DNA from: a virus
Taxonomy: Duplodnaviria > Heunggongvirae > Uroviricota > Caudoviricetes
Length of the DNA stretch: 64,000 bases
IMG/VR virus record: IMGVR_UViG_2718218135_000001
Coordinates: 32,001 to 96,000 of that record
Direction: 5' to 3' (one strand)
The translations under genes were made by a program, and so were the position numbers. A model generated the notes under the pieces. The model had not been told where the DNA came from. It did no database searches and saw only the letters and a program-made list of their open reading frames with translations. This document shows, one piece after another, positions 20,038-49,361 of the stretch. How positions within the stretch are numbered: position 1 is the stretch's first letter; each line of letters starts with the position of its first letter.

Positions 20038-20870
20038 TGGCACAGATCGACACGTACCGTAGCGGGGAAGCCGTTTCCCTGTCGTTTGCATTTAACGTTC
20101 TGGATATTGAGTCGGCAACGTATACCGTCAGAGATGGCGCGGGTTCGATCATCGTTGATAACGAACCTCTCGATATTACTGAGGGGCAGATGTCCATTCC
20201 GGTTGTCGTGTCGGCCGAACACAACCTGCTTGCCGACAAAGAGCGCGATCTGCGTTACGTCCTCGTCAAAGCGGTGGCATCCGGTCTGACGCATGAAGAG
20301 CGCAAGATGTACGTTCTGCTAAATAGCTTCGAGCTGTCTATCCCAGGCCAGTCATTCGCAACGGTCGCAGACGCCCAGATGCAAGCCATCGACATGCTGA
20401 ACGGCGACACTCTGTTGGCTGATGGTGACGGGCTGATGCGCAAACGTCTCATTGAGGCCACCAGACGCGTCAAAACGCTGCCGTTTTCAATCCGCAAAGT
20501 CCTTCGTATCGATTTCGATCGGTACGACCGTCCACAAAACATGCTGAACGTATATGACGTACCGTGGGGTGCTGACGGGGCATATCGTCACGATCTGATT
20601 GATTGGGAGAAGATGACGCAGGATAAATTCGACGAATTCCCTGACTACTTCAAACAGACATTAATGCTGGCCGTGGTTAATGAAGCCTGCGAAATCGCTA
20701 ACGGCAATGACGTAGCGGCAGCTCGCGAGGACGGCATCCTGTCTGAATCCATTGGTGAAACGACAAATATGTACCGCACCGGCAAAGCGGCAAATTTACA
20801 TGTGGCTCGCAGTACCTGGAGACTGCTGGTCAGCTACATCAACAACCGCATGATTGTTCGCCGTGCGTAA
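20037..20870 (+). CDS. hypothetical head-tail region protein (277 aa)
   Basis: ORF in structural block; ATGA-type overlap with upstream gene. Confidence 0.5.
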   Translation: MAQIDTYRSGEAVSLSFAFNVLDIESATYTVRDGAGSIIVDNEPLDITEGQMSIPVVVSAEHNLLADKERDLRYVLVKAVASGLTHEERKMYVLLNSFELSIPGQSFATVADAQMQAIDMLNGDTLLADGDGLMRKRLIEATRRVKTLPFSIRKVLRIDFDRYDRPQNMLNVYDVPWGADGAYRHDLIDWEKMTQDKFDEFPDYFKQTLMLAVVNEACEIANGNDVAAAREDGILSESIGETTNMYRTGKAANLHVARSTWRLLVSYINNRMIVRRA

Positions 20871-30818: not shown

Positions 30819-30835
30819 ACAAGGATTTTTTGAAC

Positions 30836-33800
30836 ATGGAACAGTTCAAGAAGAAAAAGTTACCGCTGTTTATTGCCGGTGCGGGTGGTAAAAAAAGTAG
30901 CAAAAGCTCCAGCCGTACACCGGTTGAAGCCGACGATACCGTAAATTCTCGTGCAATGGCCGCTATCCTCGATCTTCTTGGGGAAGGGGTAATTGGCGGC
31001 TTAGTAAATGGCGCAAGATCTATTTTTATCGACGATCTGCCGATTGTAAATGAAGACGGTTCCTCCAACTTCAGCGGAATCACATGGGATTTTCGCGACG
31101 GTTCACAAGACCAGACTCCAATGTCTGGCTTTGATTTCGTTGAAACGCCTAAATCCGTCAATATCCAGTTAAAAAAAACGCATTATGTAACGGTTTCAAT
31201 CGATAACGATGAAGCTGATCGGGTTCGTGTCATCATGAAGTTTCCTTCTTTGCGAAGCATAGATAAAAAAACTGGTGACACGAACGGTACGACTGTTGAG
31301 TACAAGTTCCAGATAGCAAATGGCGACTCAACATTTGTAGATGTGGTCGCGGAAGGTGAAAAAAGCGTTGGCATTAAGCTAACAGCAAAGAAGACCGGCG
31401 TTTATTACCGTAGCTATGAGCTGAAGCTGCCTAAGCCTGGACGAGCATACAAGGTTCGTGTAGTCCGTATTACCGATGATAACAGTAGCCAGTATCTCTA
31501 TAACGATACATGGGTGGATTCAATCGGGGAAATTGTCGATACACCGATGAACTATCCAAACTCTGTTTTGGTTGGATTGAAGGTAAACTCTGAGCAATTC
31601 GGCAGCACCATGCCATCTCGCTCTTATCTGGTGCGTGGCCTAAAAATTCGAGTACCTTCAAACTATAACGAGTCCAGTAACACTTACGCTGGGGTATGGG
31701 ATGGCACTTTTAAGCTGTTGTCTTCTTCGAACCCCGCGTGGATTCTCTTTGATTTGCTGACCAATGCTCGATATGGCCTTGGTCAGTATGTGTCGGAATC
31801 TATGATTGACCTTGGCCAGTTGTACCAGATTGGTCGATATTGTGACGAAGAGGTCGATGATGGCTTTGGTGGCAAAGAGAAACGCTTTGCAATCAATACG
31901 CAGATCACCAGTCGACAGGACGCATACCGGCTAATTCAGGATATTGCTGGAGCATTCCGCGGCATGGTGTTTTGGGCTGGTGGGATGGTTAACATCATGC
32001 AGGATAGCCCATCAGATCCGGTAATGATGTTTACCAACTCTAACGTCAAAGATGGATTGTTTACCTATAAAGGTTCTGCGCGTAAAGATCGCCCATCCGT
32101 TGCGCTCGTAACCTACAACAACAAGGAGGACGGTTATAAGCAAAACATCGAGTACGTTGAAGATCAGGACGCAATGCGCCGTTATGGTGAGCGTAAGACA
32201 GAAGTCGTAGCATTTGGCTGTACAAGCCGAGGGCAGGCTCACCGAGTTGGTTTGTGGCTTTTGTATACCGCCAGAATGGAGTCGGATGTAATTACATTTA
32301 CTGCCGGCTTAGACGCGTCATTTTTGATGCCTGGTGAAACCGTTCTGATTCAGAACAAATATCGCGCAGGCAAACGTAACTCAGGTCGAATTGTGGCGTT
32401 TACCAAAAACAGCGTCACACTCGATGCGCCTGTGTCGTTAGCCAAAGGCGGCTGCTTTATTCGAATACTGAATCAGGAAGGCAAAATCGTTGAACGCGAT
32501 GCTCTTGAAACTGGCGAAAATATAACAAAAGTTACGTTTTCAAAAGCCCTGTCGTCAGCGGAAACGCCTGTTTTGAACGGTGTCTGGACAATTACAGAAC
32601 CAGATCTCGAACCTATGCGCGTTCGCATCGTTAACATCGCTCAGGGGGAAACGTCGGGTAGCTTTGACATCACCGCTGTTGAAAACAATCCGTCTAAATA
32701 TGAGGCGATCGACAATGGTGCAACGCTTATCCCGCAGAATACGACGGTATTGGACCCGACTTACTCCAAGCCGTCTAATTTGCAAATCACTGAAGGGACT
32801 TATCTCTCAAGCCCGGGCAACCTGTCAGTAAAACTGACTGCAACATGGGAAGGGAAATCTCCAGAGTATTGGATCAGTTGGCGACGTTCTGATGCAAACA
32901 ATGTATCGAACTGGCAATCGACGCGTGTAACCGAAGAGCAATACGAAATCGTTAATGTCGCGGAGAATGGACGCTACGACTTCCAACTGTATGCGGTTTC
33001 ATTCAACGGTAAAAAAACAGAAATTATCAGCACCGTCTACAAAGTTCAGGGGACGATGACGCCGCCGGATGCACCGACTGCACTGACGGCCGTGGGCGAC
33101 TACCGCAACGTGATTCTGAATTGGGTTAACCCGGACTCAATCGACCTCGATCACATCAACGTGTATGCATCCCGGACCAACAACCTGGACACTGCAAAAC
33201 TAATTGCCGAAGCAGCCAGTACCACCTTTACGCACGCAGGTCTTGGAGATAGCGAAACTTGGTTCTATTGGGTTCGTGCAGCAAACAAACGCGGAATGTT
33301 GAGCCAGCCGAACTCCAATTTGGGCACTGAGGCGATGACGAAAGATGTTCTGTCTTTCCTGACCGGGAAGATCACTTCTTCGGAATTGGGGCAGGAACTG
33401 CTTGAGGAAATCGACACCAAAGCCTCGCAGGAAGCCGTCGACGCAATCAACAAGCAGATGGAAGAAAGCCTGAAAAGCCTTGATGACAAATTTACTGAGA
33501 CCGATCAACGGATTGAAGAAGCCCAAAACGTTCTTAGAACGGAAGTTTCTAATACTGCCAGCAAGGTGGAAGAGGCTCTTAAGGAGGTTGAAAACTCAAA
33601 TGCCGCATTAATTCAGTTGAAGGAAACTGTTTCAGAGCAGGACAAGGTCGTTGCTGGAGCGGTTGAGGCCGCGAATGCAGCACTGGACAATTCATCGGCT
33701 TTAGTTGCGGAGGAACGTGAGGCACGAGTCGAAGGCGACTTGGCGAACGCGAAAGAAATCGAGGCAATGAAGTCAACTGTAGATAGCAGTTTGGCCACCA

Positions 33801-35413
33801 TTGAAGAGATGAAAAAAACCGTGGCTGAAGTCGAGCACTCCAGTGCCGAAGTGACGACAAACATTGAGGCATTGGCTAAAACAAACATCGATTTAGCTTT
33901 GCGTCAGGATGAAGACCAGCACAAACAGATGGTGAGCAATTCCAGGATCGCCACAACTCAGAAGGCTTTTGCAGATGATATGTCCGCAATGGCTACGAAA
34001 ATGGAAGAGATTAGAGCTGAAATAAATGAGGATATCAGAGCTTCAATCACTGAAGAGACTACGGCTCGTGTAGATGCGGATAATGCTATTGGAAGCAGAA
34101 TCACCAAACTTGAATCAAAGATTAACGATGACATTTCTGCCGCAATTGTGAGTGAACAAGAGGCGCGAGCCAGTGCCGATGAAGCACTTTCAAAAGAAGT
34201 CCTATCGTTACAAGCCAAAGTTGAAGGCGATATTAGTGCCGCTATATCTGAAGAAAAAAACGCCCGAGCAACTGCCGACGAATCTTTGGCACAACAGATA
34301 ACTACATTGAAGAGTCAAACGGGCAAGGATATTAAGGCGGCTGTAGCTGAAGAGACGAAAGCCAGAACTGATGCTGATTCCGCTTTGGCTTCTAATATCA
34401 CTAATCTACAGGCTCAAACGAGCAAAGATATTCATGCTGCGATTACATCTGAAGCGACTGCGCGTACAAGCTCCGACAATGCACTAAGTGGGAGAGTTGA
34501 CACCTTAAAAGCATCAGTAGATGGAAATACAGCAACAATTCAACAACAGGCCACAGCTATTGCTGATACGAACAAGAAGGTATCAACAGCCTGGACGCTG
34601 AAAATGGAAACCTCCACCAGCGGAGGCCAAAAATATGTTGCCGGCATAGCGTTGGGCATCGACACAACAGGTCTATCGCAGTTTTTGGTGCAGGCAGATC
34701 GCTTTGGTTTGGTGAACTCCGTTAATGGGAAAATTACAACGCCATTCGTTATTGATGCCGGTGTGGCTTATATGAACGGAGCTTATATCAAGAACGGCAC
34801 CATTGATAACGCCAAAATAGGCAACTTTATTCAGTCCAACGATTACTCAAGCGGGATGACGGGGTGGCATATTAATAAAAACGGGAACTCAGAGTTTAAC
34901 AATGTAACTGTTAGAGGCACCGTTTACGCAACGAATGGCAAATTCACAGGAGAAATACAGGCTACCAGCGGAACATTCAGAGGCACGGTACAAGCAGATC
35001 ACTTCGTAGGCGATGTCGCTAACATGTATGTGGGCAATGACTTCTCAGTTCGTTACAGCGGCACATATACAATGACATATACAGACTCTTCTTCGTCTGC
35101 ATTGCCCAAAAATATTTATGTGGCAATAAATGTATATACGGGGGGCGTCGGCCCTGTTGCAGCCCAATTTACCTGCAATGGAGTGACGAAGACCGCAACC
35201 ACTGGTAAGGGGGCAACATACAGAGACCCTGATCTTAATTCAACAAGATCTACAGGCGTCGGTGGCACTCTTTACGCTGCTTTTAACAATGTTACCTCAA
35301 GAACTGTTGCTGTTACGGTAAAAGTGACCAGTTCATCACAGACACATATTTATTCGCCCGTGATGCTAATCAGCCGTGGAAGTGGCGCATTTTCCATGTC
35401 GGGCATCAGTTAA
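30836..35413 (+). CDS. tail tip / host-specificity protein (lambda gpJ-like) with inserted coiled-coil repeats
   Basis: 1525 aa at the J position; internal ~33-aa tandem repeats. Confidence 0.85.
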   Translation: MEQFKKKKLPLFIAGAGGKKSSKSSSRTPVEADDTVNSRAMAAILDLLGEGVIGGLVNGARSIFIDDLPIVNEDGSSNFSGITWDFRDGSQDQTPMSGFDFVETPKSVNIQLKKTHYVTVSIDNDEADRVRVIMKFPSLRSIDKKTGDTNGTTVEYKFQIANGDSTFVDVVAEGEKSVGIKLTAKKTGVYYRSYELKLPKPGRAYKVRVVRITDDNSSQYLYNDTWVDSIGEIVDTPMNYPNSVLVGLKVNSEQFGSTMPSRSYLVRGLKIRVPSNYNESSNTYAGVWDGTFKLLSSSNPAWILFDLLTNARYGLGQYVSESMIDLGQLYQIGRYCDEEVDDGFGGKEKRFAINTQITSRQDAYRLIQDIAGAFRGMVFWAGGMVNIMQDSPSDPVMMFTNSNVKDGLFTYKGSARKDRPSVALVTYNNKEDGYKQNIEYVEDQDAMRRYGERKTEVVAFGCTSRGQAHRVGLWLLYTARMESDVITFTAGLDASFLMPGETVLIQNKYRAGKRNSGRIVAFTKNSVTLDAPVSLAKGGCFIRILNQEGKIVERDALETGENITKVTFSKALSSAETPVLNGVWTITEPDLEPMRVRIVNIAQGETSGSFDITAVENNPSKYEAIDNGATLIPQNTTVLDPTYSKPSNLQITEGTYLSSPGNLSVKLTATWEGKSPEYWISWRRSDANNVSNWQSTRVTEEQYEIVNVAENGRYDFQLYAVSFNGKKTEIISTVYKVQGTMTPPDAPTALTAVGDYRNVILNWVNPDSIDLDHINVYASRTNNLDTAKLIAEAASTTFTHAGLGDSETWFYWVRAANKRGMLSQPNSNLGTEAMTKDVLSFLTGKITSSELGQELLEEIDTKASQEAVDAINKQMEESLKSLDDKFTETDQRIEEAQNVLRTEVSNTASKVEEALKEVENSNAALIQLKETVSEQDKVVAGAVEAANAALDNSSALVAEEREARVEGDLANAKEIEAMKSTVDSSLATIEEMKKTVAEVEHSSAEVTTNIEALAKTNIDLALRQDEDQHKQMVSNSRIATTQKAFADDMSAMATKMEEIRAEINEDIRASITEETTARVDADNAIGSRITKLESKINDDISAAIVSEQEARASADEALSKEVLSLQAKVEGDISAAISEEKNARATADESLAQQITTLKSQTGKDIKAAVAEETKARTDADSALASNITNLQAQTSKDIHAAITSEATARTSSDNALSGRVDTLKASVDGNTATIQQQATAIADTNKKVSTAWTLKMETSTSGGQKYVAGIALGIDTTGLSQFLVQADRFGLVNSVNGKITTPFVIDAGVAYMNGAYIKNGTIDNAKIGNFIQSNDYSSGMTGWHINKNGNSEFNNVTVRGTVYATNGKFTGEIQATSGTFRGTVQADHFVGDVANMYVGNDFSVRYSGTYTMTYTDSSSSALPKNIYVAINVYTGGVGPVAAQFTCNGVTKTATTGKGATYRDPDLNSTRSTGVGGTLYAAFNNVTSRTVAVTVKVTSSSQTHIYSPVMLISRGSGAFSMSGIS

Positions 35414-35504: not shown

Positions 35505-35548
35505 TTGTGTGGGCAGGGACGCCCACACTTCAAGGAGTGAAAAAGAAC

Positions 35549-38500
35549 ATGTGGTACAGGGAAGGCACTGTTACATTTACAAAAGGAAGCGACACAATAT
35601 CAGGCATCGGAACACGTTGGAATTTGACCGAAAACGGCGTGTTACCGGGCATGATTGTCATTGGTCCTGACAATAAGTTGTATGAGGTCAAGCGCGTAAC
35701 CAGTGATAAGGTCATTGTTCTCTCAGAACCTTATACCGGCGAAACTCAATCTAAAGTTCCGTGCCGAATCATTACGACCTATGAAGGCGACTTAACTCAG
35801 TTTAGTGCGCGCTTTACTGCACTAATGTCGCGTATGTCGGCTGATTCCAAGTCCATGCGCAGTTGGTTGACCGCTCTGGATGATGTGACAATCGAGCGTG
35901 AAGACGGTACAGAAGTGACCGTTAAGCCGCTAATGCAGATCGTCAACGAGCATAACGAAAACGTTGAGTGGTATAAAAATAACACCGATGCGATTGAGGC
36001 CGCTGGAGACAAAGCTCGGGAGGCGGCGGCCAGTGCTGTCGCTGCGGCAGAAAGTGCCAACACTGCTGTAGAAAAAGCCTCTCAGGCATCTCAAAGTGCA
36101 TCCGCTGCGGTATCTTCACAAAGTGCGGCGAGTGAGAGTGCAGCTGCTGCGGAAAAATCTGAAACAAACGCAGAAGCGGCAAAAGAAGCGGCAGCAGAAT
36201 CAGCATCTGTGGCGTCGACTAAAGCATCGGAGGCAGCCACATCAGCGTCCAGTGCCTCTGCATCTAAGGATGCGGCTAAATTATCAGAGACTAACGCTTC
36301 ATCGAGTGCAAACGCGGCAGCATCATCAGCTACAGAAGCTGCAAATTCATGTAAGGCAGCAAAAGCATCAGAGACAAACGCAAAAGCGTCTGAAGCTGCT
36401 GCCGAACAGAGTGCATTGTCTGCAAACAGTTCGAAATCTGCGGCAGAAACGTCAGCGAGCGCGGCCTCAGTAAGCGCGGATAGTGCTTCATCAAGTGCAA
36501 CGTCGGCAGAAAAGTCTGCGGAAAGCGCTTCGTTATCTGCGGCAAATGCCACCGCTAAAGCGACAGAGGCGACGAAACAGGCAACAGCTGCGGAAAAGTC
36601 AGCAGAGGCGGCAAAATCTTCTGAAACCAATGCAAAGACTTCAGAAGACAATGCCGCTGCTTCTAAGGAGACAGCAGCCGAATCTGCAAGCTCTGCCTCT
36701 GTTTCAGCTTCCTCGGCGTCATCTTCAAAAGATGAGGCCGCTCGCCAGGCGTCAGCGGCAGCAGAGAGTGCGACAACGGCATCAACGAAGGCGACGGAAG
36801 CGGCAGACAGTGCGACGGAGGCTGCGCAGAGCAAAAATGCGGCAGAATCCGCGGCAACACGCTCTGAGACAGCGGCAAAACGAGCTGAGGATATTGCATC
36901 CGCCGTGGCGCTTGAGGATGCGAGCACGACGAAAAAGGGGGTAGTACAGCTCAGCAGTGCGACCAACAGCACGTCTGAAACGCTGGCGGCAACGCCAAAA
37001 GCCGTTAAGGCCGCGTATGACCTGGCTAACGGGAAATACACCGCACAGGATGCAACGACAGCACAGAAAGGGATAATCCAGCTAAGCAGCGCGACCAACA
37101 GCACGTCTGAAACGCTTGCCGCGACACCAAAGGCAGTAAAAGCAGCCAATGACAATGCTGAGAAACGTCTGCAGAAAGATCAGAACGGTGCGGATATCCC
37201 TGGCAAAGATACCTTTACGAAAAATATTGGTGCCTGCCGTGCCTTCGGTGGGTCAGTAAGCACAACAACAGGAAACTGGACGACTGCACAGTTTATCGAG
37301 TGGCTGGATTCTCAGGGAGCATTTAACCATCCATACTGGATGTGCAAGGGTTCCTGGTCTTATGGCAATAATAAAATCATTACTGATACTGACTGCGGTA
37401 ATATTCATCTCGCCGGAGCTGTCATTGAAGTAATGGGGATAAAGTCAGCGATGACGATCCGCATTACCACACCGACCACCTCCACTGGTGGTGGAACAAC
37501 TAACGCCCAGTTTACCTATATTAATCACGGAACAGATTATTCACCTGGCTGGCGAAGGGACTATAACTCCAGAAATAAGCCAACGGCATCAGAGATCGGG
37601 GCGTTACCGTCAGGTGGAACAGCAGTATCATCAGTTAATCTGGCTTCAAAAGGTCGGGTAACCGCGCTGACAGACAATACGCAGGGGGCAGCAGGTCTTG
37701 AGTTATACGAGGTGTATAACAACGGATATCCAACAGCGTATGGAAATATCATTCACCTGAAAGGGATGACAGCCGTTGGCGAAGGTGAGTTACTCATCGG
37801 CTGGAGTGGTACAAGCGGTGCTCATGCTCCGGCATTTATTCGTTCACGACGGGATACGACCGACGCAAACTGGTCGCCGTGGGCGCAGCTTTACACCTCG
37901 GCTCATCCTCCTGCAGAGTTTTATCCAGTCGGTGCACCAATCCCGTGGCCATCAGATACCGTTCCGTCTGGCTATGCCCTGATGCAGGGGCAGACTTTTG
38001 ACAAATCTGCATACCCGAAACTTGCAGTTGCTTATCCGTCAGGCGTGATCCCTGATATGCGTGGCTGGACGATTAAGGGCAAGCCCGCCAGTGGTCGGGC
38101 CGTATTATCTCAGGAACAGGACGGCATTAAATCGCACACCCACAGCGCCAGCGCATCCAGTACGGATTTGGGGACGAAAACCACATCGTCGTTTGATTAC
38201 GGAACCAAATCCACGAATAACACCGGGGCGCATACCCATAGTATTAGCGGGACCGCAAATAGTGCCGGTGCGCACCAACACAAGAGTTCCGGTGCATTTG
38301 GTGGCACGAACACGAGCATTTTCCCTAATGGTTATACCGCGATTTCAAATCTAAGCGCGGGGATTATGAGCACAACAAGCGGTAGTGGCCAGACTCGTAA
38401 TGCAGGGAAGACATCATCAGATGGTGCTCATACCCACTCGCTGTCCGGCACAGCTGCATCTGCAGGTGCACACGCACATACTGTCGGTATTGGTGCTCAT

Positions 38501-38614
38501 ACGCACTCGGTTGCGATTGGCTCACATGGACACACCATCACCGTTAACGCTGCTGGTAACGCGGAAAACACCGTCAAAAACATCGCATTTAACTATATTG
38601 TGAGGCTTGCATAA
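35549..38614 (+). CDS. side tail fibre protein
   Basis: two copies of tail-fibre repeat [21 protein letters not shown]; long A/S/E-rich shaft; C-terminal HxH motifs. Confidence 0.8.
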
Positions 38615-39195
38615 TGGCATTCAGAATGAGTGAACAACCACGGACCATAAAAATTTATAATCTGCTGTCCGGAACTAATGAATTTATTGGTGAAGGTGAT
38701 GCATATATTCCGCCTCATACAGGTCTGCCAGCAAACAGTACCGATATTGCACCGCCAGATATTCCGGCAGGCTTCGTGGCTGTTTTCAACAGTGATGAGG
38801 CATCGTGGCATCTCGTTGAAGATCATCGGGGAAAAACCGTCTATGACGTGGCTTCCGGCGACGCGTTATTTATTTCTGAACTCGGTCCGTTACCGGAAAA
38901 TGTTACCTGGTTATCACCGGATGGGGAATATCAGAAGTGGGACGGCACATCCTGGGAGAAGGATGAGGAAACAGAAAAATTGTTTCAGGTACGGGAAGCG
39001 GAAGAAACAAAAAAAAGTCTGATGCAGGTAGCCAGCGAGCACATTGCGCCACTTCAGGATGCTGTAGATTTGGAGATTGCAACGGAGGAAGAAGCATCGT
39101 TGCTGACTGCATGGAAGAAGTATAGAGTTTTATTGAACCGCATTGACACATCAACGGCACCGGATATTGACTGGCCAACAATACCAGCAGAGTAA
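38614..39195 (+). CDS. tail fibre assembly protein (Tfa-like)
   Basis: 193 aa directly after fibre gene, TAATG overlap. Confidence 0.75.
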
Positions 39196-40780: not shown

Positions 40781-41302
40781 TTATTCTTCGAACAATTTTT
40801 CGATAGATTTTGTTGGATAGAACAAAGAACGATCGTTGTTACCAACCAGCTGGATAAAGCCCAAACTTTTATAAAACGCCCTAGCTTTATCGTTCAACGC
40901 CTCAACGAAAAGCCCATGAATGCCTACCGCAAGAGATGCATTGTACACAACACGCATTGCGTGAGTTACAAGCATTGAGCCAAACCCCTGACCTTGAAGA
41001 GATTTGTCCAAAGCCAGTCTGCCTAAAGTGATACTTGGGACATTCCGATAAGGCACTTTCTTTTGCTGACTCTTTGAAGGTAAGGTTTCTTTCTCAAAGC
41101 AGCTGCCTGACAAAGTGTAATAACCTAATACCTTTGGTATTTCTTCTTTAGTGCAAAGCACATAAGCGCGAAGAATTTTTCCTTCATGCTGTCTTTTTAA
41201 GTGGTTGGTCAAAAATGCGTTTAGTGACTCTTCGCCGCAATCAAAACCGTTTAGATCATAATCTTTCTCTCCAGAGAAAATCTCGATCGTCGTATTGCTC
41301 AC
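40781..41302 (-). CDS. GNAT-family acetyltransferase toxin (TacT-like)
   Basis: GNAT motifs; paired with upstream small antitoxin. Confidence 0.7.
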   Translation of the reverse strand: MSNTTIEIFSGEKDYDLNGFDCGEESLNAFLTNHLKRQHEGKILRAYVLCTKEEIPKVLGYYTLSGSCFEKETLPSKSQQKKVPYRNVPSITLGRLALDKSLQGQGFGSMLVTHAMRVVYNASLAVGIHGLFVEALNDKARAFYKSLGFIQLVGNNDRSLFYPTKSIEKLFEE

Positions 41303-41309
41303 GAGTAAA

Positions 41310-41579
41310 TTACTCCATGCTTTTCAGACGATTGGCAGCTCGTTTCAGCTTGTCGTTCGGTGCCGGAGGATTGCTTATAGCATCCATAACCAGATTCCAG
41401 GACTCTTCACTTAGAACCAGTCTACGGTGTTGCTCTATCACCTTCACGGCACGTTCGGATGCACTGCTAACCATGAACTGGGTAATGCTCTGGTTAGACA
41501 TTGCGGCAGCTTCCTCGATGATGCTTTTATCGTCATCGGTTAATCTCAAATCGATGCGCTGCTTTTTCAGTGCGGACAT
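41310..41579 (-). CDS. RHH antitoxin (TacA/DUF1778-like)
   Basis: 89 aa upstream partner of the GNAT toxin. Confidence 0.7.
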   Translation of the reverse strand: MSALKKQRIDLRLTDDDKSIIEEAAAMSNQSITQFMVSSASERAVKVIEQHRRLVLSEESWNLVMDAISNPPAPNDKLKRAANRLKSME

Positions 41580-41898: not shown

Positions 41899-42564
41899 AT
41901 GACCAAGATCATTGTGGTTGGCGGCACAAAAGGCGGCCCAGGCAAATCTACCGTTGCCCAGCAAATTGCGGTATGTCTCAAAGTTAAAAAGAAAAAGAAG
42001 GTTCACGTCACCGATATCGATATCCAGCGCACCACGACCAGCTGGTGTGAAGACCGTCGCCAGAACGAAGATCTTGAACTGATCCCGTTCGCTTATGTGC
42101 AGGACGACATCGTCAAACATCTTAAATCGCTTCAGGGGCGAACTGATTATGTAGTGGTAGATGCTGGTGGCTTTGACTCCGAAATTCAGCGTCTGGCGAT
42201 GCTTATGGCTGATGTAATCATCATCCCGCTGCGCCCTAAACGTCGTGATTTGAAATCTCTGCGTGATATCGACCCGATTATCGACAACGTTCGCAATGTG
42301 AACGAGAAAGTTAAGATCCGCGCGGTAATAAACCAGTGTCCGTCATTGCCTTCCCAGGTATCACGTATTCTGGCCGCGAAGGAAATTGTCGAAACTTTCG
42401 GCATCGAGGCTGCGCCGGTCAATCTGTACAACCGTAACGTTTATGACGATGCGGAAGAGGCAGGTCGTTCTATCTTTGAAATGACTGGCGCTGAACGCGA
42501 TAAGAAGGCAGAAGCCGAGTTCGAAGAGTTTGTAGATTACATCTTGAGTCTGGAGGAAGAATAA
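41899..42564 (+). CDS. parA: ParA-family partition ATPase (small, type Ib-like)
   Basis: deviant Walker A GGTKGGPGKST; 221 aa. Confidence 0.85.
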   Translation: MTKIIVVGGTKGGPGKSTVAQQIAVCLKVKKKKKVHVTDIDIQRTTTSWCEDRRQNEDLELIPFAYVQDDIVKHLKSLQGRTDYVVVDAGGFDSEIQRLAMLMADVIIIPLRPKRRDLKSLRDIDPIIDNVRNVNEKVKIRAVINQCPSLPSQVSRILAAKEIVETFGIEAAPVNLYNRNVYDDAEEAGRSIFEMTGAERDKKAEAEFEEFVDYILSLEEE

Positions 42565-48340: not shown

Positions 48341-49351
48341 TTAGTCGTAGGATACGGCAAATATCGCCTGGCCTTGAACTTCCCCAGGCTGTAAAGCTTC
48401 CTCTTTCACGCGAACGTATTTTGCGGTAATCGGGAAGATGTACTGTTCCTGAATAGCCGCCATTTTAGGTAATCTGTTCATCAGGGTATCGCCCAGCTTT
48501 AACGGTGTCGTTGCATTACCATTGTAAATCTGGAACCCTACACCCTTAGCACCATCGGACAATGTATTTTTCAATATTGTTCCACTATCATCCCACACAC
48601 CACGCTCAACTTTAAAAGTCACTGGATTAGTCGTGACGTTATAGACACTATCGCAATTTAGGACCAGATCTACAGAACCTGATTTTGAGTTATTGGCAGA
48701 TAGCATCTCACTTATCGTTGTTTCTGGTATTCTTATTTCGTAAGTCGGTTGCGAGAAACGACAGGTTGTGGGTTTGTGTTTAACAGTAATGGTTAGTTTT
48801 TGTTCGTAAGCATCGCCTTTATTTAACAACCCCAATAAATTGCACAATATCCATGAAAAAATATTTGAACTGCATTGATTATCAGATAAAAAGTTACCCG
48901 CTGGCTTTTTTAATTCGAATGAATCCCCCTCTACCGCTTCACCATGATCACTTCTATATGTAGTTGGTGGTATATATGAGGCCGTTAACTTCAGTTGTTT
49001 ATTATTAATGGTATCAGCAACAGAATAGGTTTTAGGCGACAGAAGCGAACCACTCGTTTCTACAGGAAATCCATCAGCCTCAAGCTTTAATTTAATAAAA
49101 ATAGACTTATTGCTGGAGCCATCTTTCATTTCAACAATATAGTCATCTAACGTTGTTGCAAAATACATCTTATCCCCCCTCGAGTTACATTCATAAGATC
49201 CTTGCAGGTTGGGATTAAAACTTACTATTGTTGAATCCCTTGTTAAGTCCAGTGTAATTGGTTGAGTTGCTGTCCAAGTTCCCTTAGGGGTACATTTCGC
49301 CTGCCCAAAAAATGGAATAATCAACAAAAACAAAAACCAATATTTCTTCAT
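48341..49351 (-). CDS. fimbrial adhesin / minor subunit
   Basis: signal peptide MKKYWFLFLLIIPFFGQA; last gene of chaperone-usher operon. Confidence 0.6.
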   Translation of the reverse strand: MKKYWFLFLLIIPFFGQAKCTPKGTWTATQPITLDLTRDSTIVSFNPNLQGSYECNSRGDKMYFATTLDDYIVEMKDGSSNKSIFIKLKLEADGFPVETSGSLLSPKTYSVADTINNKQLKLTASYIPPTTYRSDHGEAVEGDSFELKKPAGNFLSDNQCSSNIFSWILCNLLGLLNKGDAYEQKLTITVKHKPTTCRFSQPTYEIRIPETTISEMLSANNSKSGSVDLVLNCDSVYNVTTNPVTFKVERGVWDDSGTILKNTLSDGAKGVGFQIYNGNATTPLKLGDTLMNRLPKMAAIQEQYIFPITAKYVRVKEEALQPGEVQGQAIFAVSYD

Positions 49352-49361
49352 AAAAAATCCT

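Follow-up and report, generated by a model that had tools for sequence, protein, structure and literature searches.

A mosaic side tail fibre gene with a T4 gp37-like tip in an SSU5-like phage-plasmid of Escherichia coli

The closest described systems to the gene considered here are the long tail fibre tip of phage T4 and the side tail fibre (Stf) of phage lambda. The needle of T4 gp37 holds seven iron atoms coordinated by histidines, with H929 and H931 among the iron ligands and critical for folding; a 'tip' subdomain inserted in the stem (residues 932-959) forms the distal pole that binds lipopolysaccharide (LPS) and OmpC, receptor contacts map to residues 933-953 within it, and gp37 needs chaperones even in vivo, gp38 and gp57A being co-expressed with it (PMC6957217). 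Receptor-binding proteins with the gp37/Stf tip are already on record as a large family (PMC9659904). Stf of Ur-lambda has been modelled as an N-terminal collar domain, a linker, a proximal coiled coil, a hinge and a gp37-like distal part; the proximal coiled coil of lambda Stf was fitted to density from cryo-electron tomography (cryo-ET), and the same study reports OmpC as the Stf receptor (PMC12617516). Here we describe an stf-like gene in a 64,000-nucleotide stretch of DNA from a tailed virus (Caudoviricetes; IMG/VR record IMGVR_UViG_2718218135_000001, positions 32,001 to 96,000). This whole stretch is called the window, and coordinates are given within it.

The window is part of an SSU5-like E. 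coli phage-plasmid, because its closest plasmid matches share size, typing and gene order. They are mostly 106-113 kb long (a few 75-163 kb), the three plasmids examined in detail are typed as non-mobilizable with an IncFIB replicon, and both plasmids viewed with their flanks, pLAO4 and the ET300 plasmid (NZ_CP100974.1), have the same gene order as the window. The gene shows what is expected of an SSU5-like side fibre, namely an SSU5-type N-terminus (78% identity), a slot between gene J and the lysis genes and a phage-plasmid of ~105-112 kb as its carrier. Textbooks or recent papers already cover the gp37/Stf tip, the iron sites formed by histidine pairs of the pattern HxH, the coiled-coil shaft, the tail fibre assembly chaperone Tfa and the horizontal exchange of fibre modules, and the gene itself, already annotated as a tail fibre in RefSeq, is an ordinary one. 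It illustrates cleanly how a cassette is swapped between lambdoid prophages and SSU5-like phage-plasmids, the join lying within the shaft.

The fibre gene, its parts and its relatives

The gene lies in a single unbroken open reading frame (ORF; 35507..38614, +). No ribosome-binding site precedes the GTG at 35507. The true start of the fibre is the ATG at 35549, since AAGGAG lies 11 nt upstream of it, ORF residue 15 is where all PHROG alignments begin, and the 99.9% identical copy on the ET300 plasmid, labelled 'tail fiber protein', is given this same ATG by PGAP. Protein residues are numbered from this ATG. The parts of the gene and its two immediate neighbours are as follows.

35549..38614, +: side tail fibre gene (stf-like), 1021 amino acids (aa) and a stop; ORF, AAGGAG ribosome-binding site, PHROG tail-fibre families
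35549..35983, +: N-terminal anchor domain of SSU5 type, residues 1-145; tblastn to SSU5-like phages
35984..36931, +: A/S/E/T-rich shaft, residues 146-461; composition, heptad periodicity, AlphaFold2 (AF2) helix, homology to lambda orf-401
36689..36730, +: Ser-rich break of 14 residues (~381-394) in the predicted helix; AF2 predicted local distance difference test (pLDDT) score <50 at model residues 241-254
36923..37177, +: two Phage_fiber_2 repeats; Pfam PF03406, E 6e-37, two stretches
37154..37624, +: middle domain like Mu gp52 (S'), residues 536-692; phmmer against PDB entry 8JU3
37625..37918, +: connector, residues 693-790; common to lambdoid Stf proteins and identical to PhiR42_1 Stf in alignment
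37931..38074, +: Collar domain, residues 795-842; Pfam PF07484, E 4e-11, within the 2XGF alignment
38135..38281, +: putative outgoing half of the needle stem with HxH 1-3 (H863/865, H895/897, H909/911; codons 38135-38143, 38231-38239, 38273-38281), aligned to T4 gp37 H883/885, H915/917, H929/931
38282..38422, +: hypervariable tip insert, residues 912-958 (47 aa, 141 nt), between HxH 3 and HxH 4
38423..38611, +: putative returning half of the needle stem with HxH 4-7 (H961, H975, H984, H993; codons at 38429, 38471, 38498, 38525) and an invariant 11-residue C-terminus, aligned to T4 H966, H980, H989, H998
30830..35413, +: gpJ-type central tail fibre, 1527 aa; Pfam Phage_Tail_Tip, Phage-tail_3 and FNIII-A_GpJ, NCBIfam lambda_TipJ
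38614..39195, +: tail fibre assembly chaperone tfa, 193 aa; Pfam Caudo_TAP, E 9e-44; its ATG overlaps the stf stop (TAATG)

The position directly downstream of the gpJ-type central fibre and upstream of the Tfa chaperone identifies the product as a side fibre, and Tfa, which is 91% identical to lambda Tfa (orf-194), is translationally coupled to the fibre gene. An earlier note on this DNA, made from its letters alone, had called the region a tail fibre, as these neighbours and the PHROG tail-fibre families confirm. The interval that it gave, 36000-38560, covers the shaft and the tip, but it lacks the first 150 residues and ends 18 codons (54 nt) short of the stop.

The tip provides the strongest link to a solved structure. 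A phmmer search against PDB sequences matched residues 791-1021 (231 aa) to the crystal structure of the T4 gp37 tip (2XGF; E 1.2e-83), with 153 of 215 aligned residues identical (71%); comparison with long-tail-fibre tips had been suggested in the earlier note. That note had also described the C-terminus as His-rich with H-T-H-S and G-A-H-x-H motifs reminiscent of metal-coordinating fibre tips, and this description holds: 14 of the 21 histidines lie in the last 160 residues, which carry four HTHS, five GAHxH and seven HxH motifs. The expected number of HxH per shuffle is 0.41 when the whole protein is shuffled and 1.13 when the last 160 residues are, and seven were reached in none of 5000 shuffles either way. 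All seven HxH (first residues 863, 895, 909, 961, 975, 984 and 993) align with the iron-binding HxH of T4 gp37. On its sequence, the C-terminal module belongs to the iron-stapled needle tip family of T4 gp37 and lambda Stf, as every defining feature that a sequence can reveal is present, namely homology to gp37, seven HxH in register, a Collar domain before the needle, a variable tip insert and a downstream chaperone gene. The likeness to gp37 extends to the 11-residue C-terminus, and would extend to the six-stranded needle. Outside the tip the present fibre is unrelated to gp37, it is a side fibre on a siphovirus-type tail, and its chaperone is a lambda-type Tfa rather than gp38/gp57A.

The fibre gene as a whole is a four-part recombinational mosaic of an SSU5-type anchor, a lambda Stf-like shaft, a Mu gp52-like middle and a T4 gp37-like tip. 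The N-terminal 155 residues share 90% identity with phages Cyrano and CMS-2020a and 78% with Salmonella phage SSU5 (tblastn); matches of the anchor to PDB are weak (N-terminus of the F2-pyocin side fibre 25ve, E 8.5e-4; 'distal tail protein gp20' 23gd, E 3.4e-4). At the DNA level, nt 1-1460 of the gene match Cyrano at 76%, and from gene nt 1156 on, apart from the tip insert, it agrees with PhiR42_1 stf at 96.5% identity (BLASTN). Megablast matches to lambdoid Stf genes, to which the 3' two-thirds of the gene are 94-96% identical, start at the same point (query position 1198), near window position 36704, which coincides with the Ser-rich break in the shaft helix. Judged by sequence, the gene is of the phage-plasmid type through the anchor and most of the shaft, and past the Ser-rich break there is 95-97% DNA identity to lambdoid Stf-Tfa cassettes. 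Since the fibre that occupies the same slot in Cyrano has 1341 aa, bears the annotation of a P1 S tail-fibre homologue and is not followed by a tfa, we regard the lambda-type Stf-Tfa cassette as an acquired module.

Between shaft and tip, the Phage_fiber_2 region, where the DNA carries a direct repeat (36915-37021 / 37047-37153, 77% identical), also matches the Mu fibre 5YVQ. The match to 8JU3, which is Mu gp52 (PMC11821841), has a whole-sequence E-value of 2e-84, and its stretch over residues 536-692 scores 233.9 bits (E 3e-68), aligning nearly end to end with high identity in addition to the preceding fibre repeat. No PDB or Pfam match, and no solved homologue, was found for the connector (residues 693-790). 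Mu differs in its tip and in its invertible G-segment arrangement, both absent here. An invertible segment (shufflon), brought to mind by the Mu S'-like domain and by the Pin gene of PhiR42_1, was considered and rejected, as neither an invertase nor an inverted fibre fragment of the Mu G or P1 C type was found in the window downstream of tfa.

Compared with lambda Stf (orf-401 and orf-314) and its Tfa, the locus has the same Ala/Ser-rich shaft, gene position after J and closely similar Tfa, and its gp37-like tip is 70% identical to that of orf-314. In contrast to lambda, stf follows J without an intervening lom and has a Mu S'-like middle domain, and the lambda tip has extra repeat units and another insert. 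Residues 1-185 gave no BLASTP alignment to orf-401, so that the lambda-type StfN collar domain was not found in this part. With its different N-terminal anchor, the protein taken as a whole is not simply a lambda Stf; it is an SSU5-like fibre slot with a lambdoid distal cassette. The Stf genes of mEp332, ev099, PhiR42_1 and mEp460 share 94-96% DNA identity with it over the stretch that starts where the shaft ends and runs through tfa, and differ in having a lambda-type anchor and proximal shaft; PhiR42_1 further differs in its tip allele and in a downstream Pin-type invertase that is missing here. The SSU5-like fibres (SSU5, Cyrano and CMS-2020a; NZ_CP100974.1 and pLAO4) share the anchor (78-90% identity), a genomic slot that follows J and precedes the lysis genes, and a shaft with ~76% DNA identity, and a few plasmids carry the entire gene at 94-99.9% identity. 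Of 5426 complete E. coli genomes, 4288 contain pieces of it. At least 80% of the chimera is found in just 4 of 20,395 E. coli replicon records, the best being the ET300 plasmid (111.7 kb, 99.9%).

How the fibre would work

We put the probability that the fibre gene and tfa specify a side tail fibre and its chaperone for an SSU5-like E. coli phage-plasmid, working as proposed here, at about 0.9. The SSU5-type N-terminal domain would anchor the fibre at the tail tip beside the gpJ central fibre, and the fibre protein would trimerise. The Ala/Ser-rich heptad region would form a long alpha-helical coiled-coil shaft. After the fibre repeats and the Mu S'-like and collar domains, each chain would run out and back in a six-stranded needle of gp37 type, with the seven HxH pairs of the three chains facing the axis and one iron ion, held octahedrally by six His, at each site, as shown in T4. 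We propose these axial iron sites on the strength of the 71% identity and the alignment of all seven motifs. At the hairpin turn the 47-residue insert would form a distal, receptor-contacting knob, and the downstream Tfa would chaperone trimerisation of the tip.

Several points weigh against this proposal. Trimerisation, iron binding and receptor binding are transferred from T4 and lambda by homology and are to be read as probable, while expression and virion incorporation of the fibre are predicted from sequence. The receptor of T4 is not transferable, since the insert is 15 residues longer than its T4 counterpart (49 residues from the last His of HxH 3 to the first His of HxH 4, against 34) and, where it aligns to the T4 tip subdomain 932-959, is identical at 8 of 31 aligned positions (~26%). 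PGAP flags J as 'frameshifted' in the ET300 plasmid (1289-5865 of L007), so that some members of the lineage may be defective; J of the window is unbroken over its 1527 aa. The AF2 monomer of the tip was uninformative. This model of the last 259 residues, computed with a 25-sequence alignment, had a mean pLDDT of 40, essentially no secondary structure and no usable fold; the crystal structure of the 71% identical T4 tip carries more weight. Formally this is the 'disordered' outcome that the earlier note had named as speaking against its proposed tip, yet it says nothing against the needle fold, because that fold is an obligate, chaperone-assembled, intertwined and metal-containing trimer, about which a monomer run is uninformative. 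The result serves as a warning that such tips give a false picture of disorder when they are predicted as monomers.

If the gene were instead a non-functional remnant that makes no fibre, it would resemble stf in laboratory lambda, which is frameshifted, or the pieces of stf left in cryptic prophages. Fragments of stf are indeed very common, as the genome counts above show, the J flag of the ET300 plasmid fits such decay, and in relatives the PLSDB tables list only a 325-aa C-terminal coding sequence (CDS), 'stfQ' or 'phage tail protein' (L001 14134-15108; L004 and L005, 2340-3314). The full ORF of 1021-1023 codons is, however, intact in both copies checked (L001 and L005), which makes the 325-aa entry an annotation gap in incomplete tables and not a truncation, and pseudogene status on this ground was rejected. 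Likewise, the window ORF is unbroken over 1021 codons, has a ribosome-binding site and is coupled to an intact tfa, J is intact beside it, substitutions are strongly biased to codon position 3, and PGAP annotates the full CDS. A remnant is hence very unlikely, and a working side fibre remains our preferred reading.

Shaft, histidines and tip insert

The A/S/E/T-rich shaft predicted in the earlier note is borne out in composition, and its length is ~316 residues rather than ~350. A, S, E and T together make up at least 65% of every 20-residue window across residues 146-461, and 79% of residues 151-460 against 37% of the rest of the protein. Residue identity within the shaft is 0.35-0.41 at lags of 7, 14, 21 and 28 residues against ~0.18 at other lags, and the distribution of Ala has power at periods of 3.5, 2.33 and 7, a heptad pattern. 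AF2 on residues 141-480 (340 aa; a monomer run from the single sequence, without an alignment) gave helices at model residues 2-239 and 253-339 with a mean pLDDT of 73, dipping to 37-56. BLASTP aligned shaft segments to lambda orf-401 at 62-72% identity. We infer a trimeric coiled coil with an Ala/Ser core from the heptad periodicity, the AF2 helices, the homology to orf-401 and the Ur-lambda Stf model; at 0.15 nm per residue it would, if continuous, reach an estimated length of up to ~45 nm. The shaft was also considered as a DNA tandem repeat, which was ruled out in favour of a degenerate heptad pattern: Tandem Repeats Finder reported just two tiny arrays in it, and the spacings of its direct-repeat families are multiples of 42 nt.

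The extreme low complexity of the A/S/E/T region, together with the moderate AF2 confidence of a monomer run made without an alignment, might suggest an intrinsically disordered linker and not a rigid shaft. The strong 7-residue periodicity would be unexpected in such a linker, the predicted helix is unbroken over more than 230 residues, and the homologous lambda region was modelled as the proximal coiled coil in cryo-ET density (PMC12617516). We consider disorder here very unlikely and a coiled-coil shaft the better account.

In order to compare the conserved and variable parts of the tip, we aligned the query with 24 database relatives, 73-100% identical to it (25 proteins in total). Mean pairwise identity is 92% in the collar and first stem half and 95% in the second stem half and C-terminus, and falls to 27% in the insert, which is 30-51 aa long and has 19 distinct sequences among the 25 proteins. 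HxH is kept in 23-25 of the 25 proteins at each site. This pattern bears on the role of the histidines. Their clustering far above chance in shuffles could suggest that the His-rich repeats form a receptor- or ligand-binding surface, either as exposed metal sites or as a 'Ferrojan horse' that offers iron to siderophore receptors, and iron-binding tail-fibre motifs have been discussed in relation to iron cycling (PMC11705849). Near-invariance of HxH across alleles with wholly different tips is, however, the opposite of what a specificity determinant would show, and the T4 equivalents coordinate iron along the needle and are described as critical for folding, while the receptor contacts lie at 933-953 (PMC6957217). 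A binding surface made of histidines is accordingly a more doubtful proposal still than disorder of the shaft, and by analogy with T4 the histidines would be structural iron staples on the trimer axis and not specificity determinants.

The earlier note had taken this His-rich part to be probably the receptor-binding region. The C-terminal module as its site stands, and the histidines within it would be structural; the likely contact is the hypervariable insert. It is most likely insert 912-958 that would contact the receptor, as suggested by the combination of an invariant scaffold with a hypervariable turn and by T4 mutagenesis, and its 141 nt (38282-38422) would mark the host-range determinant of the phage-plasmid. 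The exact tip allele is found in the lambdoid phage mEp332 (100% over 83 aa), with 98.8% in ev099, and also in plasmids of E. fergusonii. A literature search on the receptors of mEp332, ev099 and PhiR42_1 returned nothing relevant. The receptor of T4 and lambda is OmpC and/or the LPS core. It is a tentative idea, on balance doubtful, that the present allele recognises a receptor other than these K-12 OmpC and LPS-core targets. If true, the phage-plasmid lineage retargets its host range by capturing Stf-Tfa cassettes of chromosomal prophages through recombination in the low-complexity shaft.

Overlapping reading frames and neighbouring genes

The shaft region also contains five ORFs in other frames, of which the earlier note had already held the antisense ones to be spurious.

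36091..37155, -: spurious ORF of 354 aa, antisense within the shaft
36483..36944, +: spurious ORF of 153 aa, alternative frame
36096..36473, +: spurious ORF of 125 aa, alternative frame
35797..36063, -: spurious ORF, antisense
35943..36206, -: spurious ORF, antisense

Pfam gave no match for the three of them that were tested (36091-37155, -; 36483-36944, +; 36096-36473, +). A stop in the frame of the 354-aa antisense ORF needs a sense codon that starts with TA or CA, and such codons number 7 of 310 in the shaft against 56 of 561 downstream; the antisense frame stays open because they are nearly absent from the shaft. Substitutions in the shaft relative to Cyrano fall 47, 35 and 168 times at sense codon positions 1, 2 and 3, and the whole gene shows a similar excess at position 3 against three plasmids and PhiR42_1. 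In lambda (NC_001416), 'orf206b, hypothetical protein' is annotated at 20147-20767, antisense to the Ala/Ser-rich part of stf (orf-401), and the 354-aa ORF aligns with it. A real overlapping gene at 36091-37155 (-), as the orf206b annotation and the length of 354 codons might suggest, is the least credible of the alternatives, since no family matches it, its openness follows from the scarcity of TA- and CA-starting sense codons, the 168 of 250 changes at sense position 3 fit selection on the sense frame, and its similarity to orf206b mirrors the conservation of the sense strand. These ORFs are by-products of a restricted codon set, and lambda orf206b is most likely the same compositional artefact. 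Annotators should treat ORFs antisense to Ala/Ser-rich fibre shafts, orf206b included, as such artefacts.

The gpJ-type fibre, which at 1527 aa is longer than the 1132-aa lambda J CDS, has its NCBIfam lambda_TipJ match at residues 25-974 and its Pfam Phage_Tail_Tip match at residues 1236-1371. Within and between these matches, at ~33200-34400, lies an A/S/E-rich, repeat-like stretch (...DISAAI.EE.ARA.AD..L...), which also yields antisense ORFs at 33200-34218.

NCBIfam offered no family for Stf or Tfa. A promoter and terminator scan returned no more signals than in shuffles, so that no internal regulatory signal is proposed. The 3' half of the tfa CDS wholly contains, on the sense strand, a full-length match to Rfam family RF02111 'IS009', a candidate E. 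coli small RNA family (38957-39155, +; 189.6 bits, gathering score 117), which probably reflects conserved prophage tfa sequence and not a separate RNA gene. In several close relatives ~900 nt lie between stf and tfa and break the TAATG coupling; this insert is absent from the window. In H97, H98 and H105-H107 it is annotated in RefSeq as a 'macro domain-containing protein', and in the E. fergusonii plasmid NZ_CP056969.1 (L005, 3311-4214) it holds two consecutive ORFs of 162 and 141 aa. It may be a moron or a counter-defence gene.

Genes 3' of tfa, on the same strand, match the holin and endolysin annotated in phage Cyrano. Further along the window, a GNAT acetyltransferase toxin of 173 aa and, upstream of it, a TacA1-like DUF1778 antitoxin of 89 aa (E 3.5e-26) form a toxin-antitoxin pair of TacT/TacA type (40781-41579, -) that adjoins a ParA-like ATPase (41899-42564). 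The phage-plasmid also carries a chaperone-usher fimbrial operon (48341-54106, -) with an usher of 830 aa (Pfam Usher, E 6e-184), a fimbrial protein of 376 aa and more ORFs of 244, 182 and 271 aa, and chaperone-usher fimbrial cargo is annotated in pLAO4 as well.

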